A stretch of DNA of 32,000 nucleotides from Wolbachia endosymbiont of Cimex lectularius. GTDB taxonomy: Bacteria > Pseudomonadota > Alphaproteobacteria > Rickettsiales > Anaplasmataceae. The stretch lies in assembly GCF_000829315.1 (NCBI RefSeq), contig NZ_AP013028.1:450001-482000 (forward strand). Reading direction: 5' to 3'. Shown here piece after piece: positions 4,319-30,455 of this stretch. The notes beneath the pieces are model-generated. The model was not told the origin of the DNA and did not search any database. It worked only from the letters and a program-made list of their open reading frames with translations. Each line of letters begins with the position of its first letter. Within the stretch, counting starts at the first letter, position 1. Made by a program: the position numbers and the translations under genes.

Positions 4319-5734
4319 ATGGGAAAATGTAATAACACATGGTTCAATAAGCATGATTGTACAAACGATGGCACCTGCGGTCAATCTATACAAAATTATA
4401 AGGTTGGTAATTCTAATATTTCTTTCTATGACAGCTATGGAAAAACGATTGCACAGATACCTAAGTTGCCTAACGGAAACTCTATTACATACTATAATAA
4501 TTTATACAAAACTGCAGAATCAAAAAATTTTGCTGGTAGGTCAGCAGAATATGTAGGAATTCAGGATGTATTGCCTAATCAATTTAATTTCAAATATGGA
4601 AAGTTAAATTGCGTGATACATTATGATAATGTATCACAAGAGGAGCAAGAGCAAATAAAGCTTGATATTCAAAACGCTTATGAGGCATACAAAGCGAAGT
4701 TTTGTATTGCCGGTACCCAAGGTACTGTGCACACCTATATTTTTAATAATGAAAATGACTATAAGAAATACGGCACTAAGGTTCCTGGGTTTTCAAAGTA
4801 TCAAGATATGGTTAATAAGTCTGCTGGAATGACAGATGGAAGAAGCGTATCGCTCTATAAAAATGCTTATATGGATAACGTTTTAGCACATGAAATGGGT
4901 CACGTGTTCCAATTTAGGTTTTCCATGGCAGAAGTAGAAGCATTAGACCGTGTAAATTCTCAGTTAATGGCAAATGCCATTGGGCTAGAAGTAGAAGAAA
5001 AAAATTATAAAGCTATTTGTGAACAAAAAGACATAAATGAATACAAAAAGTTTAATGACAAAATTTTTGAGTTTGAGTACAAAGGCACCCTGTATCAAGT
5101 ATGGGGTAAGGTACGTCAAAATCTTTCAGGAGAGGAGAAAGTTCAATTTATTAAAGACATTAAGAGCTCTCATGAATCGCTTACTAGTGAGTGTTATAGA
5201 TTAGGTGGTGAAAGTGCAACTTTAAAAGTTCACATTTATGTTGGTGAAAATAAAGACATAGATAAAGTGTTTTTTTATAACCCCAACAAGAACTTATCTA
5301 AATGGTTGGATAAGACACTTATAAGCAGAAGTAACCCTGAAGAAGAGGTAAATACAGAGAAAAGTCAAGAGGAACAAGAGTCAAATGAGGTGAATTCAAG
5401 ATCAGGGAAAGAAAAATCCTGGAGTCAGGAAGAGTTGAATAAAGTAGAACATACAGGCTCAAAGGAAGAACAAAGTAAGATAGAAGAGAGCCAGCAAGGC
5501 ACTCAGCAACCCAGTGACTCGTCACCTAATGTTATTTTTCAAGCGCTTGACTACATTATTGGTTCCATTTCATCATTCTTTTCATGGTTATTTGGTTCTA
5601 AAGAGAAAGAACAACCTGCTCAACAATCTGACGATAGCTTTTCTTTATTTGAGTTTGATGCGAGCGGGCTAGATCACGATATTGGAGATCACTTGTCAGA
5701 CAATCATTATCACTCATCTGATGAGCTAATATAA
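4319..5734 (+). CDS. Large HEXXH zinc-metalloprotease-like protein with an acidic/Ser-rich C-terminal tail
   Basis: The 471 aa ORF is preceded by GTGAGG. The HEMGH motif is at aa 191-195 (nt 4889-4903). Its context, VHTYIFNNENDYKKYG...GMTDGRSVSLY...LAHEMGHVFQFRF, resembles the M9 collagenase catalytic core layout. There is no obvious signal peptide. The C-terminal ~130 aa are low-complexity E/S/Q-rich plus a hydrophobic segment, VIFQALDYIIGSISSFFSWLFG. Confidence 0.6.
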   Translation: MGKCNNTWFNKHDCTNDGTCGQSIQNYKVGNSNISFYDSYGKTIAQIPKLPNGNSITYYNNLYKTAESKNFAGRSAEYVGIQDVLPNQFNFKYGKLNCVIHYDNVSQEEQEQIKLDIQNAYEAYKAKFCIAGTQGTVHTYIFNNENDYKKYGTKVPGFSKYQDMVNKSAGMTDGRSVSLYKNAYMDNVLAHEMGHVFQFRFSMAEVEALDRVNSQLMANAIGLEVEEKNYKAICEQKDINEYKKFNDKIFEFEYKGTLYQVWGKVRQNLSGEEKVQFIKDIKSSHESLTSECYRLGGESATLKVHIYVGENKDIDKVFFYNPNKNLSKWLDKTLISRSNPEEEVNTEKSQEEQESNEVNSRSGKEKSWSQEELNKVEHTGSKEEQSKIEESQQGTQQPSDSSPNVIFQALDYIIGSISSFFSWLFGSKEKEQPAQQSDDSFSLFEFDASGLDHDIGDHLSDNHYHSSDELI

Positions 5735-6021
5735 CAACTCCCCTCCCCTTTTTAGTTATGTCTATAGCCTTTCAAATATGGGGAGGTAGTTATTTAAACA
5801 ATTAAATGAAAAATTAAGTAAATCATCCTGAAATTCCTGCTTTTTGTTGCGCAAAGAGATGACTTTTATTTCATTTGCATTATGGTTTAGGAGAAACGCA
5901 GATGAGCATAGCAAAATACCTGAAGTACCTCAGCCGCTAACACATAGCGGAATGACGGTTTTTCGAATCTTTAGGGTGTCATCCAAGTAGCCCCTTCTCC
6001 TGTCGTTCCAGTGCCTTCTTC

Positions 6022-6291
6022 TTGTCATTCCAGCGCGTGACGCACATCTGTACGAACATTGCAATTAGCAGGTAATTTGCGTAACAGATGGTGTCATCCC
6101 AGTGCTCCGACACTGGGATCCAACCTTTCCATAATCATTAAAACGCCGTATTTTAACATAAAACAGCTACTTTTATACTCACCAACTTAATAAAATTCCT
6201 GGATGCCAGTGTCAGCTACTTGCATAACACCCTAGTGGTAGGCTCAAATCACAATGTTCGTACAGATGTGCGTCACGCGCTGGAATGACAA
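6022..6291. repeat. Perfect 40-bp inverted repeat flanking 190 bp, inside copy A
   Basis: 6022-6061 (TTGTCATTCCAGCGCGTGACGCACATCTGTACGAACATTG) is the exact reverse complement of 6252-6291. Confidence 0.9.
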
Positions 6292-6747
6292 CATTTGTTG
6301 TAAAAACAAATGTTCGTTCATGAATTGCAACTAGCTATAAATATTAAGAAATTTATCAAATGAGAAAAAAAGCAAAAGAAACCCTGGTCGGTGGCTAATT
6401 ATTTATATGTACCTCAAATATCGGCGTTTTTATTCTCAGCGCTACGATTCAGCTACTTTTAAATGCAAATAACCAAAACTGTAAACGTTAAGAAATTTAC
6501 TAAACAGGAAAAAGGGCAAAAAAACTCTAGGGCAGCTAGTATTCAAATTCTCCCTTGTCTATTTGACGTTCTACACTATCTTAAACGACTTATAAGCGCG
6601 TTTCAGCTTGTATAGATAAAAACCCGAAGTTTTAAAAAGACGTGAGGTGCACATAGTGCAAAAATTTAAACATGAGACGCCAAATACCCTAAGTTTTTTG
6701 TCATTAACCTGCACAGATTGCGAAGATAAATAAATAGCTTCAGTATC

Positions 6748-6776
6748 ATTATAAGGGGGTTGGCGAAGGTTGTCAA
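6748..6776 (-). promoter_or_regulatory. Perfect consensus sigma70 promoter at the edge of repeat copy A
   Basis: The minus strand reads TTGACA (6776..6771), exactly 17 nt (ACCTTCGCCAACCCCCT), then TATAAT (6753..6748). It is directed into the repeat and away from the adjacent gene 6803-9706. Confidence 0.6.
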
Positions 6777-6802
6777 GTTTCTATGAATGGCGTGTTATAT
6801 GC

Positions 6803-14224: not shown

Positions 14225-14690
14225 GGTGTAACCTTTATGCTTAAGAAATTTACCAAATGGAGAAAAAAGCAAAAGAAACCCCGTGGTAGCTAGCTATTTA
14301 CTTTTGTGTCGAAATGTTGGCGTTTCTTTATCCTAAACGCTTAATAAGTGCGACTTAGCTGCTTTTTAATGCAACTAACCTTAGCCATAAACATTTAAGA
14401 AATTCACTAAGCAGAAAAAAAGCAAAAGAAACCCCGAGTAGCTAGTTATTCACTATCTATCTTATGATATTGGCGTTTTTGATGTCTTAAACGACTTATA
14501 AGCGCGTTTGAGCTTGTATAGGTAAAAAAACAGAAGTTTTAAAAAGACATGCAGTGCACATAGTGCGAAAAATTAAACATGAGACGCGAAATATGTTAAG
14601 TTTTTTTGTCATTTAATCTGCACAGACTGAAGATAAATAATAGCTTCAACTCTATAATAACAGGGTTAGCGAAGGTTGTCAAGTAGTTTT
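14225..14690 (-). repeat. Composite intergenic repeat, copy B (lacks the palindrome/intron-site half)
   Basis: Contains the promoter block, the unique block and two ~154-bp tandem sub-repeats (14243-14396, 14397-~14545), all homologous to copy A. Confidence 0.8.
14654..14682 (-). promoter_or_regulatory. Near-consensus sigma70 promoter of repeat copy B
   Basis: The minus strand reads TTGACA (14682..14677), 17 nt, then TATTAT (14659..14654). It points toward the coxB operon. Confidence 0.5.
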
Positions 14691-14718
14691 TTTGTTTCCA
14701 TTCACTTTAACAAGTGAA

Positions 14719-17300: not shown

Positions 17301-17651
17301 ATGAGCTCTACAATAAAAAAGTTTTTTAATGTTTTATGTTTGGTGTTGTTTTTATCAGGCAATGCAGATGCCTCTAGCGCTGGTAGTGCTGGTATCAATG
17401 ACACAACTGCCCAAGTAATATGTAATATTATTGGTTATGTCTGGGGGATAGGTGGTCCACTCATGACAGTAGTAATAATTGGTGCATCCTTGCTTGCAAT
17501 ATTTGGCAGAATGCCTTGGCCAGCTCTCTTTGCTTTAGGTATGTTTTGTGGTGTATTTTTTGGCGCTAAGACGATCATAATGAACATTATACCCAATGTA
17601 AGCAATGAAGTCAAAAAAATGTTGGACCAGTGTGGACAGAATGGCCCTTAA
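17301..17651 (+). CDS. virB2: TrbC/VirB2-family T4SS pilin paralog 1
   Basis: 116 aa with a signal peptide and two hydrophobic helices. The core is IGGPLMTVVIIGASLLAIFGRMPWPALFALGMFCGVFFGAKTI, the VirB2 layout. Confidence 0.75.
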   Translation: MSSTIKKFFNVLCLVLFLSGNADASSAGSAGINDTTAQVICNIIGYVWGIGGPLMTVVIIGASLLAIFGRMPWPALFALGMFCGVFFGAKTIIMNIIPNVSNEVKKMLDQCGQNGP

Positions 17652-22580: not shown

Positions 22581-22931
22581 TTATTTCTTTTCTTCCGCTC
22601 CACACTTGTCCATAATGGAAGTATTTCCAGTACCACCTACACCACCGATTACTTTTGTCACAATAGCTTTTGCACCAAAAAACACAACGCAAAATACACC
22701 GAGTGCAAAAAGTGCCGGCCAGGGCATTTTACCGAATATTGCAAGCAAAGCCGCACCTATTATTACTATAGTCATAAGAGGTCCACCTATTCCCCAAACG
22801 TATTTAATAATATTGCATATTACTTTGGTAGTTGCATCAAGATCACTATCAGCAGCACTGCTCATATGAGAAAAGGAAATAAATAATATTATAAGAAAAA
22901 CACTAAAAACTTTCCTAATTGTAGGGTTCAT
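22581..22931 (-). CDS. virB2: TrbC/VirB2-family T4SS pilin paralog 2
   Basis: 116 aa with core IGGPLMTIVIIGAALLAIFGKMPWPALFALGVFCVVFFGAKAI, nearly identical to paralog 1. Confidence 0.75.
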   Translation of the reverse strand: MNPTIRKVFSVFLIILFISFSHMSSAADSDLDATTKVICNIIKYVWGIGGPLMTIVIIGAALLAIFGKMPWPALFALGVFCVVFFGAKAIVTKVIGGVGGTGNTSIMDKCGAEEKK

Positions 22932-24531: not shown

Positions 24532-24861
24532 ATGAAAAATTTTCTTCTACTTATAGCTTTAATCCTCTCTTTTGCATTTGATGCAAATGCTGCTAAGCAG
24601 AGTAAAACTCAAGGTGATGAAACATCAGAAGTGATATGCAGCATAGTAAAATATACCCAAAGCATAGGTGGGCCGATGATCACAGTAGTAATAATAGGTG
24701 CAGCTCTGCTTGCAATATTCGGAAGAATGCCTTGGCCTGCTCTTTTTGCACTCGGAGCATTTACTGCTGTGTTTTTTGGTGCTCCTATAGTTGTTTCAAA
24801 AATAATGCCAAACGCTGGTGTGGCTTGTAAAGATGGTACAGTACAGAAAGTGACTCCGTAA
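24532..24861 (+). CDS. virB2: TrbC/VirB2-family T4SS pilin paralog 3
   Basis: 109 aa with a signal peptide and core IGGPMITVVIIGAALLAIFGRMPWPALFALGAFTAVFFGAPIV. Confidence 0.75.
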   Translation: MKNFLLLIALILSFAFDANAAKQSKTQGDETSEVICSIVKYTQSIGGPMITVVIIGAALLAIFGRMPWPALFALGAFTAVFFGAPIVVSKIMPNAGVACKDGTVQKVTP

Positions 24862-25018: not shown

Positions 25019-25146
25019 CACAACTATTGTGAGCAATCTCTGCCAAGAGAGTGTTACCCTAGTAACCCATTTCTTGTCATCCCAGCGCGCGACGCTGGGA
25101 TCTCATTTCACCTTATGACGGTGCCATAAAAGTAGCCCCCTTCCTG

Positions 25147-25781
25147 GTCGAGTAGGCCGGTGGAACTTCCCCACCAGCCCCTCACAGAACTGTGCATGAA
25201 CCTCTCGATTCACACAGCTCTTGTCATTTTTAGCCTTTACATCAAAGACCTACCTTAATTATTTGCTCCTCCCATTTCGGTTGACAAATAACTAAAACCC
25301 AAATGACTTAGTCCCTTCGCTCCATCTCCATTACAGAGACTTCTTCACTACTACGAACTAATCCGCCCCTGTTTTCCGCATCGATACTCTCATCCTCGAA
25401 GTTTAGCTTCTTGGATTTCTCCCTTATTATCGAAACGACAGGTTCCCGCAGTTCTACACAATAGCCCAAAATAGATTCGCGCCACCTCTATGCCGGACGC
25501 CACTACCCAATAAACAAGTTTCCGGTAGATTTATCCCAGGTTAGGATGAAACCCCTGGTTTTGACGTCATCTAAGGCCTTTCGACACTTCTTCAGTGGTT
25601 CATTTTCATTCCCCTCTCTATTTCACACATGACGCATAATTGCGCCTTTTCCATAACGCTCACTACCTTGGCTCTTTACCAAAGCAGCTTATGGTTGTTT
25701 GAAGCCTGCTCTTGTAAACCGGCTCCGAGGGGCCCACCCTCATCTATTGTGCAGCTTCAGCTTACCGCTTCTACGGCACAC
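25147..25781 (-). mobile_element. ORF-less group II intron (ribozyme only, ~635 nt)
   Basis: The minus strand starts with GTGTG (25781..25777). Domain V at 25220..25187, GAGCUGUGUGAAUCGAGAGGUUCAUGCACAGUUC, folds as a 9-bp stem with the AGC triad, a 5-bp stem, a GAGA tetraloop and a 2-nt AU bulge. Domain VI is a hairpin with a bulged A (25153) 7 nt from a ...CGAC 3' end. No coherent ORF is present and the segment is visibly more GC-rich than its flanks. The boundaries match the intron-less paralogous site at 6002/6003. Confidence 0.8.
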
Positions 25782-26267
25782 TCATTCCAGTGCCTCCTCT
25801 TTTGTCATTCCAGTGCTCGACACTAGAATCCAGGAAAGTTTGCTTGTTCACAAGCAAACTGATTCGGTGATCATGGAAAGTAGCTAATCTTGTGCTAAAA
25901 ACGTTCTTGGTGAGGTTGCATGGGAAGCTGGATTCCAGCGTCACGCGCTGGAATGACACCACTTGCTGTAAAAATAAATGTTCGTTCATGAATTGCTTTA
26001 ATATTTAAGAAATTTACTAAATAGAGAAAAAGGCAAAGAAATCCCGAGTGGCGAGTTTTGACTCTATAATACTTTAAATTGGCGCTATAATAATTTGCTG
26101 ACGCTTAGTTCAAGCGCGATTTGGCTGAATGTAGAAAAAATGAAAAAGACATGCAGCCGCTATAATTTGATACAATCCGCCAAAAAATACCCTGAGTTTT
26201 TTACTGAATTTTGTCATTGAGCCTGCAGATCAAAAACAAGTTTTGATTTAGAAACACCCTTGCTGTT

Positions 26268-26296
26268 ATGGTAACGGGTTTGGCGAAAGTTGTCAA
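26268..26296 (-). promoter_or_regulatory. Degenerate copy of the repeat-borne promoter (copy C)
   Basis: The minus strand reads TTGACA (26296..26291), 17 nt, then TACCAT (26273..26268). It is in the same orientation as the intron. Confidence 0.35.
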
Positions 26297-26407
26297 GTAG
26301 TTTTTTCGCATATACCAAAAGCTGTTTTTTATGCGAGAAGTCCACTTTCAGAAATTTGTTTATTTAGATAATATTTAGTCTATACTTTATTTTGACCAAA
26401 AAAACCT

Positions 26408-29794: not shown

Positions 29795-29814
29795 TACAGA
29801 AGCTCAACGAAAAG

Positions 29815-30455
29815 TTTACTTGACAACCTTCGCCGTCACCCTTATAATGATACTGGAGTTATTTGTTTAACTTCCCAATCTGTGCAGGTTAAAATGACAA
29901 GAAAACTTGTATTTGGCGTACTATGTGCACTGCATGTCTTTTTAAAAACTTCGGGTTTTTACCCATACAAGCTGAAACGCGCTTATAAGTCGTTTAAGAC
30001 ATCACCCAACGCCGGATTTTAAAATAGAGAGTGGAATAACTAGCTACCTCGGGGTTTTATTGTCCTTTTTTTCTGCCTGGTAAATTTCTTAAATATTATA
30101 GCTTAGACTAGTTGCGTTTAAGGCATAAAAACGCCAATACTAAAAATAAATACCGACCAGGGTTTCTTTTGCTTTTTTCTCTGTTTAGTAAATTTTTTAA
30201 ATATTTATAGCTAATTGCAATTTATGAACGAATATTTGTTTTTACAACAAATGGTGTCATTCCAGCGCGTGACGCTGGAATCCAGGAACTTTATTAGGCT
30301 AGTGAGCATAAAAGTTATGTTAAAATGCACCATTTTTATGGAAAACTGGATCCCAGTGTCGGAGCACTTGGATGCACCCTCTTGGCAGCACAATGTTTGT
30401 ACGCTCTTCCTGAGTATTCCCATCTGCGTTTCTCCTCAAAATTTTTTACCATAAA
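29815..30455 (+). repeat. Composite intergenic repeat, copy D (sense strand is plus)
   Basis: Contains the promoter block, the unique block, two shortened sub-repeats (ending ~30092 and ~30200), hairpins at 30259-30281 and 30350-30374, and a far-end block CATCTGCGTTTCTCCT (30421-30436). Confidence 0.8.
29820..29848 (+). promoter_or_regulatory. Perfect consensus sigma70 promoter at the edge of repeat copy D
   Basis: TTGACA (29820-29825), exactly 17 nt (ACCTTCGCCGTCACCCT), then TATAAT (29843-29848). It begins 26 nt after the stop of the SPFH gene. Confidence 0.6.

Follow-up and report, generated by a model that had tools for sequence, protein, structure and literature searches.

A protein-less group II intron in a palindromic-repeat motif of a Wolbachia genome, and the intron-less paralog that marks its ends

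In the Wolbachia endosymbiont of Cimex lectularius (wCle), a short intergenic sequence (site A, around 5985-6030) resembles the two flanks of a group II intron at 25147-25781 (site C), some 19 kb distant, after these flanks are joined. Both lie in a stretch of 32,000 nucleotides (nt) from contig NZ_AP013028.1 (positions 450,001 to 482,000, forward strand), which is called the window here and to which all coordinates refer. The locus raises the question of whether site A is a place that the intron has left, a target that it may still enter, or a relative of site C that it never invaded. The analysis favors the last answer. The element is, in our judgment, quite likely an old, non-autonomous intron without an open reading frame (ORF), which sits in a motif of a repeat arm, is inherited vertically and drifts neutrally, with site A as an uninvaded paralog. 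Site A is a ruler for the intron ends and not evidence of current homing or excision.

The plus strand of site A at 5985-6030 reads AAGTAGCCCCTTCTCCTG/TCGTTCCAGTGCC (a slash marks a junction throughout), and the flanks of site C read ...AAGTAGCCCCCTTCCTG up to 25146 and TCATTCCAGTGCCTCCTCTTTTGTCATTCCAG from 25782 on. The region 5900-6140 was aligned locally with the joined flanks of site C. The 62 nt formed by 25120-25146 and 25782-25816 paired with 5975-6036 in an alignment that was unbroken across the join and scored 73. When the insert was kept in place, only the right half aligned, with a score of 44. In a boundary scan, in which either end was moved by -3 to +3 nt, the score peaked at 73 for 25146/25147 together with 25781/25782, and all other positions gave 68 or less. 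The two sequences involved are as follows.

5975 to 6036, minus strand: site A, paralogous to the flanks of site C but without the intron (from the alignment and boundary scan; equivalent junction 6002/6003).
25120 to 25146, minus strand: 3' exon module of site C, CAGGAAGGGGGCUACUU..., which aligns to 5975-6002 of site A.

Paralog A fixes both intron ends to the nucleotide. The initial annotation had claimed that the joined flanks reproduce site A with a junction at 6002/6003, and that this junction coincides with the GUGUG and CGAC ends predicted independently from the ribozyme domains. Both statements held, since the alignment is unique in the window, its break points fall exactly on 25146/25147 and 25781/25782, and the end of domains V and VI in Rfam agrees with the peak of the boundary scan. 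The flanks of site C, spliced in silico, reproduce site A because the two sites carry paralogous copies of one 62-nt repeat module. The match was described earlier as differing by a few substitutions or indels; it is real, but the likeness near the junction extends over 62 nt only and includes three small indels. One difference, TCGTTCC in site A versus TCATTCC in site C, is A to G on the plus strand and U to C in the sense of the intron, and falls within the exon stretch that is base-paired by the intron.

The region is crowded with short repeats, and a match of only 62 nt with three indels might be taken for a chance resemblance of low-complexity, repeat-rich intergenic DNA. Against this explanation, the score of 73 compares with a maximum of 26 (mean 15) in 1000 shuffles; site A was the sole such match to the joined flank in the whole window on both strands, and the next independent locus scored 26. 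The peak is also sharp at exact boundaries that Rfam gives independently. A chance match is thus refuted, and its probability is practically nil.

In the sense of the intron, site C reads ...GGCACUGGAAUGA/GUGUGCC...CCUACUCGAC/CAGGAAGGGGGCUACUU. The ligated exons of a spliced product would be joined as CUGGAAUGA/CAGGAAGG, and in this comparison with a paralog the sequence of site A matches the joined exons of site C precisely at the splice junction. Around site A, positions 5979-6045 are made up of three units in tandem, each about 22 nt long and opening with the target motif described below (TGTCATCCAAGTAG..., TGTCGTTCCAGTGCC... and TGTCATTCCAGCGCG...). The intron of site C occupies the middle unit of the equivalent array.

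The insert itself is a group II intron, with the following parts.

25147 to 25781, minus strand: ORF-less group II intron, 635 nt (Rfam RF01999, 108.9 bits; RF00029, 59.8 bits).
25777 to 25781, minus strand: 5' end of the intron, GUGUG (direct reading and boundary-scan peak; the minus strand opens GUGUGCC at 25781).
25628 to 25741, minus strand: core of domain I, Rfam group-II-D1D4-2 (RF01999), 108.9 bits against a gathering score of 36.
25187 to 25220, minus strand: domain V with an intact AGC triad (RF00029 alignment), identical to domain V of the full-length introns of the Wolbachia strain wStri.
25153, minus strand: bulged A of domain VI, 7 nt from the 3' end (RF00029 alignment and fold).

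The RF01999 match covered the full-length model with no flagged non-canonical pairs. RF00029, the model for domains V and VI, was likewise matched in full and without non-canonical pairs from 25222 to 25147 on the minus strand (59.8 bits against a gathering score of 40), with model position 77 of 77 on 25147. The intron finishes with ...CUCGAC at 25147, so that its ends agree with the GUGYG/AY pattern, and the A at 25153 is the putative branch point according to the model alignment. The G+C content of the intron was 46.9%, compared with 35.8% for the window, and its fold was more stable than that of shuffled controls (z = -6.9). In the minimum free energy (MFE) fold, domains I, II and III, a short stub of domain IV, and domains V and VI were separately recognizable. 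More than 40 environmental introns of group II are 70-77% identical to it over domains I-III. The ribozyme is IIB-like. No ORF was found within the 635 nt, so that the intron-encoded protein (IEP) of a mobile group II intron is missing, and the element counts among the bacterial group II introns as one of their ORF-less derivatives.

To locate the exon-binding sites (EBS), the window intron was aligned with the copies of the Wolbachia strains wStri and wTis and of locus L068, which comes from an uncultured Wolbachia (WOLB0025). Two short variable segments stood out within conserved surroundings. The segments and their partners, the intron-binding sites (IBS) of the exon, are listed here.

25544 to 25549, minus strand: EBS1, 5'-UCAUCC-3', intron nt 233-238, in a hairpin loop (position from covariation).
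25573 to 25577, minus strand: proposed EBS2, 5'-GCCUU-3', intron nt 205-209, in the variable segment directly after a conserved GUCGAAA.
25782 to 25796, minus strand: 5' exon target of site C, with IBS1 GAAUGA at 25782-25787 and the proposed IBS2 GAGGC at 25792-25796.
6003 to 6008, minus strand: IBS1 equivalent of site A, GAACGA.
6013 to 6017, minus strand: IBS2 equivalent of site A, AAGGC.

The EBS1 segment sits in the loop of the hairpin at intron nt 225-246, and its position is fixed by covariation in three lineages. In wStri the loop positions are CUUGAA, and four of the six readable 5' exons end with UUCAAG, the others with UUUCAG and UCAAAG. In environmental homologues of the L125 type the positions are AGUCGU and the exon ends with ACGACU. 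The L068 copy has GGCGUC against the exon GACGUA, which gives five of six pairs. The loop segment UUGUUU (nt 259-274) was also considered as EBS1 and was dropped, since the covariation in wStri places EBS1 in the hairpin at nt 225-246. The perfect partner of the window EBS1 would be GGAUGA. The complementarity that the initial annotation expected between the EBS loops and the 5' exon ...GGCACUGGAAUGA was present: IBS1 of site C pairs with EBS1 at five of six positions, the exception being an A.C mismatch at -5. For site A, which departs from site C at -3, only four of six positions pair.

The assignment of EBS2 is probable. The window segment reads GGCCUU, of which GCCUU can pair with GAGGC at site C (-15 to -11) or with AAGGC at site A, where the match is slightly better and all pairs are Watson-Crick. 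In the L125 type (GCGUAG with CUAUGC), in L185, and in L068 (ACACA with UGUGU), the segment at this place was complementary to exon sequence that lies about 9-14 nt upstream of the junction. The MFE fold paired the segment with AGGU at nt 295-298; this pairing was judged spurious, since AGGU is invariant across the class and the EBS2 segment varies freely. In all copies of the ORF-less lineage the first base of the 3' exon was C, and in wStri it was U or C; this is compatible with a G at EBS3.

The exon sequence at the junction belongs to a motif that recurs in the window. The target is the 13-nt motif TG/TCATYCCAGYG on the plus strand, or CRCUGGRAUGA/CA in the sense of the intron, and the intron at site C splits TG/TCATTCCAGTG. 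When up to one mismatch was allowed, TGTCATYCCAGYG occurred in nine further copies in the window, compared with 0.05 expected, an excess of about 180-fold. The long intergenic regions of the window are full of palindromic repeats, and the motif is their arm; site A is one copy of the motif, mutated at -3.

6092 to 6104, plus strand: empty motif copy with a perfect IBS1 (GGAUGA/CA).
25075 to 25087, plus strand: another empty motif copy whose IBS1 is perfect, 60 nt away from the occupied site C.
6023 to 6035, plus strand: empty motif copy TGTCATYCCAGYG.
4822 to 4834 (minus), 6278 to 6290 (minus), 25803 to 25815 (plus), 25946 to 25958 (minus) and 30255 to 30267 (plus): other motif copies.
25792 to 25976, plus strand: long hairpin similar to WsnRNA46, with the target motif as its arms (Rfam RF02625, 67.8 bits, barely above the gathering score of 65.3).

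The copies at 6092 and 25075 pair with EBS1 at six of six positions, and six copies in the window share the five-of-six match of site C. Among the motif copies, an AGGC partner for the proposed EBS2 was present only at sites A and C. On the opposite strand, the RF02625 hairpin shares sequence with the 5' exon and the proposed IBS2 within it, and it begins 10 nt from the 5' splice junction. The repeats and the intron are thus related as follows: the target motif of the intron is the arm of these Wolbachia palindromic hairpins, whereas the hairpin is a target and not a part of the intron, and RF02625 matches the other strand. Much of the small RNA family WsnRNA46 may simply be palindromic repeat.

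A composite intergenic repeat was also observed in four copies, at 5975-6800, 14234-14700, 25783-26300 and 29800-30375 (inverted). It shares ordered modules, for example GCGTCACGCGCTGGAATGACA...TGTTCGTTCATGAATTGC and TTAAGAAATTTAC...AAAAAGCAAAAGAAACCC, and each copy ends with GGCGAAGGTTGTCAAGT. On the opposite strand, the GGCGAAGGTTGTCAAGT module contains a promoter-like site, TTGACA-17-TACCAT (26296-26268, minus strand), which faces the intron in sense, and a strong terminator-like hairpin (25018-24984, minus strand) lies 128 nt beyond the intron. The scans for such minus-strand signals did not rise above chance. Together the two could delimit a non-coding transcript of the minus strand.

Relatives of the intron were sought by scanning 185,579 species-representative genomes with a two-arm pattern of domain V, which gave 106 loci. 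The strain wStri contains eight full-length introns of about 1.8 kb (L001, L015, L019, L043, L046, L092, L098 and L104), which are 87% identical to the window intron over domains I-III and identical in domain V; among the relatives found, they are the closest that encode an IEP. In domain IV they carry a 408-amino acid (aa) ORF that matches TIGR04416 with 406 bits and has the domains RVT_1 and GIIM and no HNH or other endonuclease domain. Their 3' exons are mutually unrelated, apart from L043 and L104, which have common flanks and represent a duplicated locus. Because wStri relatives with 87% identity over domains I-III carry the reverse transcriptase (RT)/maturase ORF in domain IV, the window element is, from its sequence, considered an ORF-less deletion derivative of this endonuclease-minus Wolbachia family.

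The junction of the deletion in domain IV (...AAGGUAGGUCUUUGAUGUAAAGGCUAAAAAUGACAAGAGCUG) is common to the window copy, the wTis copies and L040, a metagenome-assembled genome (MAG) of Rickettsiales, indicating that one ORF-less lineage is present in distinct Wolbachia. The strain wTis has at least six ORF-less copies with this deletion, in at least four distinct 3' flanks, which are 92-98% identical to the window copy. Two loci of WOLB0025 (L068 and L089) are also ORF-less and 77-84% identical, with remnants of domain IV unlike those of the window lineage; the ORF was therefore lost at least twice, independently, within Wolbachia. A scan of viral contigs with the first 22 nt of the intron and a scan of metagenome contigs with its 5' end (R at position 8) gave no matches. 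A metagenome scan with a conserved 20-mer of domain I gave 103 loci, all of them distant environmental introns with at most 77% identity, and no Wolbachia copy. The 32-kb window holds a single intron copy and no RT. No group II intron gene or pseudogene has been reported for wCle (PMC10195089); these counts are based on the protein gene, so that an ORF-less copy would have been overlooked.

The 3' exons of all eight copies of the ORF-less lineage start with CA, and six of the eight lie in recognizable modules of the same repeat. In L023 and L106, both from wTis, and in L040, the 3' exon is the CAGRAGRRGGGGCUACUUGGAUGA module found at sites A and C, and the sequences diverge completely after about 28 nt. 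In L059 and L086, both from wTis, it is CACC-GCAAAUUACCUGCUAAUUGCAAU..., which corresponds to the sequence left of the window motif at 6092. The insertion point of these two copies is at, or at most about 9 nt from, the equivalent of 6093/6094, and a 9-nt indel abuts the junction. L086 continues through an empty equivalent of site A. The ORF-less lineage has thus inserted at two or more positions of one repeat mosaic, which argues for target choice over passive co-duplication.

In the rival explanation, a repeat unit bearing the intron was copied as a passenger, in an element similar to a miniature inverted-repeat transposable element or by segmental duplication, and the shared flanks are the trace of that duplication. 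The palindromic modules are indeed variably present, the module of site A is absent from the related locus L120, and the window has four composite intergenic repeats. However, the flanks common to different intron copies extend for only about 28 nt on the 3' side before they diverge completely, the positions within the mosaic are of at least two types (that of site C and the 6093 equivalent in L059 and L086), and the exon bases at the junction are complementary to the EBS1 loop, which is what reverse splicing leads one to expect. Passenger duplication is accordingly regarded as quite improbable. The initial annotation had called the repeat family the natural target of the intron. This was borne out in part, by recurrent insertion into repeat material in wTis and one MAG; the target is the 13-nt motif and not the 62-nt module shared by sites A and C. 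If the target is read at the level of this motif, the 5' exons of the wTis copies would end with ...CACUGGGAUGA.

The age of the insertion was estimated from orthologous loci, which were retrieved through BamD for site C and through YhdP for site A. The BamD of the window is identical to wCle BAO99788.1 and clusters with those of wMoz, wMhie and other supergroup-F strains. The collinear relatives at site C were as follows.

L107 (MAG GCA_051710345.1): 99.96% identity to the window, site C occupied.
L225: about 97.5% identity, site C occupied.
L110 (GCA_051710465.1): about 94.6% identity, site C occupied.
L111 (GCA_051710485.1): about 80% identity, only a remnant at site C.

The contigs of L108, L109 and L226 (wMoz) stop before the site, and L227 has unrelated upstream DNA. 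In L111, intron nt 1-384 are left, decayed to 30% G+C and cut by a rearrangement (L111 1988-2476, L120 8556-8874). This rearrangement joins the bamD side to DNA beyond the 471-aa gene that adjoins site A. An inversion between sites A and C was considered as the cause of the arrangement and dropped, since L120 stays collinear with the window beyond site A and the break is within the intron. As the orthologous site C is occupied in four relatives, the insertion is old. No presence/absence polymorphism, as the initial annotation had envisaged, was seen, with site C occupied in all four collinear relatives.

Divergence of the intron is neutral and keeps pace with that of the intergenic DNA on either side. 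Identity in L110 was 94.6% for the intron and 94.9/95.1% for the flanking intergenic DNA; the corresponding values in L225 were 97.5% and 97.7/97.2%. The domain V triad of L110 has changed from AGC to AUC (orthologue of 25218), which almost certainly makes that copy inactive. Since no IEP is reported and divergence is neutral, the intron appears to be a relic, not an element that currently chooses targets.

The 471-aa ORF beside site A (4319-5734, plus strand) is free of Pfam domains and is a member of a large, Wolbachia-restricted multi-copy family (40-87% identity, 270-700 aa); it contains the motif copy at 4822-4834 (minus strand). As a fast-evolving multi-copy gene it was useless as an orthology anchor for site A, and the YhdP neighbor served instead. 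Three small ORFs of 109-116 aa, at 17301-17651 (plus), 22581-22931 (minus) and 24532-24861 (plus), are linked by repeats of 119-171 nt with 78-83% identity. The last of them adjoins the intron and has a TrbC/VirB2 Pfam match in public annotation, and the three look like paralogous type IV pilin-like genes.

The history of site A can be judged from these data. In L117 (96% identity) its orthologue has the same junction and no intron, and in L120 the whole module is missing. In the comparison of empty and occupied sites, site A matched EBS1 worse than site C (four versus five of six), where an open target would be expected to match at least as well. Most likely, site A was never occupied.

Precise loss, for example by recombination with complementary DNA (cDNA) of a spliced transcript, would leave what is seen at site A, namely the ligated exons of site C without a scar. 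A site that was never occupied looks the same, however. The L117 orthologue is equally empty, the module is absent from the more distant L120, no genome examined has an intron at site A, the difference from site C at -3 in IBS1 weakens the pairing with EBS1, and no IEP that could make a cDNA is reported in wCle. The earlier proposal that site A was precisely vacated is not supported, and we consider such a loss very improbable.

It could also be supposed that site A is a live, unoccupied homing site, with the intron currently mobile in trans and spreading through the repeat family here. The lineage has been mobile somewhere, as wTis has at least six copies with the same domain IV deletion at no fewer than four 3' flanks, 92-98% identical; the window copy retains its core motifs; and for IBS2, site A is the better match, with AAGGC forming Watson-Crick pairs only. 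Several observations oppose this. The window has one copy despite nine further motifs, two of them with a perfect IBS1, and the insertion at site C is fixed and old. Divergence is neutral, with the catalytic triad lost in L110, wCle is reported without any IEP, and site A has two mismatches to EBS1. Current mobility is accordingly unlikely. The initial description of site A as unoccupied stands for the window and for the one orthologue recovered (L117), but as a homing site it is not a good one, since it pairs with EBS1 at four of six positions, compared with five at site C and all six at 6092 and 25075.

For the old, vertically inherited intron favored here, the following course of events is proposed. 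An ORF-less member of the endonuclease-minus family would have been helped in trans by a related RT/maturase present at that time. It would have entered the arm motif of a palindromic repeat, CRCUGGRAUGA/CA in its sense, by reverse splicing and reverse transcription. The target would have been recognized by base pairing of EBS1 (UCAUCC) with IBS1 (GAAUGA, five of six positions) and probably by a second pairing of EBS2 (GCCUU) with GAGGC about 10 nt upstream. The insertion would have occurred long ago in an ancestor of the supergroup-F subclade that includes wCle. The helper may later have been lost, or may never have been resident, and the intron would since then have been passed on vertically as a neutrally evolving passenger.

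Some points weigh against this account. The EBS2 pairing comprises 5 bp and is shifted by one nucleotide relative to that of the L125-type homologues, so that it could be due to chance. The search among relatives yielded no orthologue of site C that is empty, and the boundaries rest on a paralog instead of an allele. The absence of an IEP from wCle is a statement of the literature, not a reading of the genome itself. The core of the window copy looks intact (GUGUG, AGC in domain V, bulged A in domain VI, and no flagged non-canonical pairs), and such a core may still allow self-splicing or some other function. Finally, the wTis contigs break inside the intron and no other copy of the ORF-less lineage gave a 5' exon, so that the motif-level target is read from the 3' exons and site C.

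The group II intron family of Wolbachia has reportedly been surveyed by Leclercq, Giraud and Cordaux in 2011 (Mol Biol Evol 28:685). The window intron resembles the full-length wStri introns in domains I-III (87%), the identical domain V, the GUGUGCC 5' end, the host genus, and the same EBS1 hairpin and EBS2 segment. It differs in lacking the 408-aa RT/maturase ORF of domain IV, in its shorter first stem and in its target: its EBS1 is UCAUCC, whereas that of wStri is CUUGAA, and the wStri introns follow ...UUCAAG, outside the palindromic motif.

Class C (IIC) introns have a small ribozyme, an IBS1 of 3-4 nt and no EBS2, and insert right after the stem-loops of terminators or attC sites. Insertion near palindromic, hairpin-forming repeats and an associated protein without an endonuclease domain are features that they share with the present family. 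In contrast, the ribozyme here is about 600 nt long and matches RF01999, with a covarying EBS1 of 6 nt and an EBS2 segment, and the insertion point, 20 nt away from the closest hairpin, is inside a sequence motif and does not follow a stem directly. The intron is not of class IIC, and hairpin-directed insertion of the IIC type was rejected on these grounds.

The ORF-less introns of Thermosynechococcus elongatus, which are complemented in trans, come closest as precedents, together with C.te.I1 of Clostridium tetani provided that wCle really has no IEP. In T. elongatus, group II introns without an ORF are mobilized or spliced in trans by the protein of a related intron (Mohr et al. 2010, PMC2882425; PMC4424553). 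The likeness lies in a deletion derivative that keeps its ribozyme and in an ORF-less lineage that is multi-copy in one genome (here wTis). The window intron differs in that one copy was seen in its genome, that this copy is old and drifts neutrally, and that no IEP is reported for wCle. The group II intron C.te.I1 lacks an ORF and resides in a genome that has no IEP at all (PMC4424553); it shares with the window intron the intact-looking core and a genome reported to have no IEP. For the window intron, the comparative data point to decay and not to maintenance.

In summary, the mechanism is standard group II intron biology and the value of the finding is descriptive; the repeat-arm target and a ribozyme in a genome listed as intron-free are mildly new. 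For annotation, comparison with the paralog yields nucleotide-exact intron ends. Bacterial group II introns that have no ORF are described as uncommon, and a related IEP is said to accompany them in nearly every case (PMC4424553); the ORF-less lineage adds several new examples, possibly including one without a partner IEP. Because surveys of Wolbachia introns count the protein gene, ORF-less copies are missed, as in wCle, which is listed with none and yet carries a full ribozyme. A more specific and tentative proposal, which we hold possible but doubtful, is that a single miniature protein-less lineage, marked by one deletion in domain IV, specifically parasitizes the 13-nt arm motif of WsnRNA46-type repeats, has multiplied in some strains (wTis), and was carried into or persists in wCle, listed as intron-free, where a copy with an intact-looking catalytic core would survive without its cognate protein. 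If true, this would be a non-autonomous retroelement riding on a family of repeats similar to repetitive extragenic palindromes, and the second bacterial case of an ORF-less intron in a genome free of IEP. The target arm also forms the WsnRNA46 family and so joins two classes of Wolbachia repeats, and a target of this kind may help explain why assemblies break at such loci.

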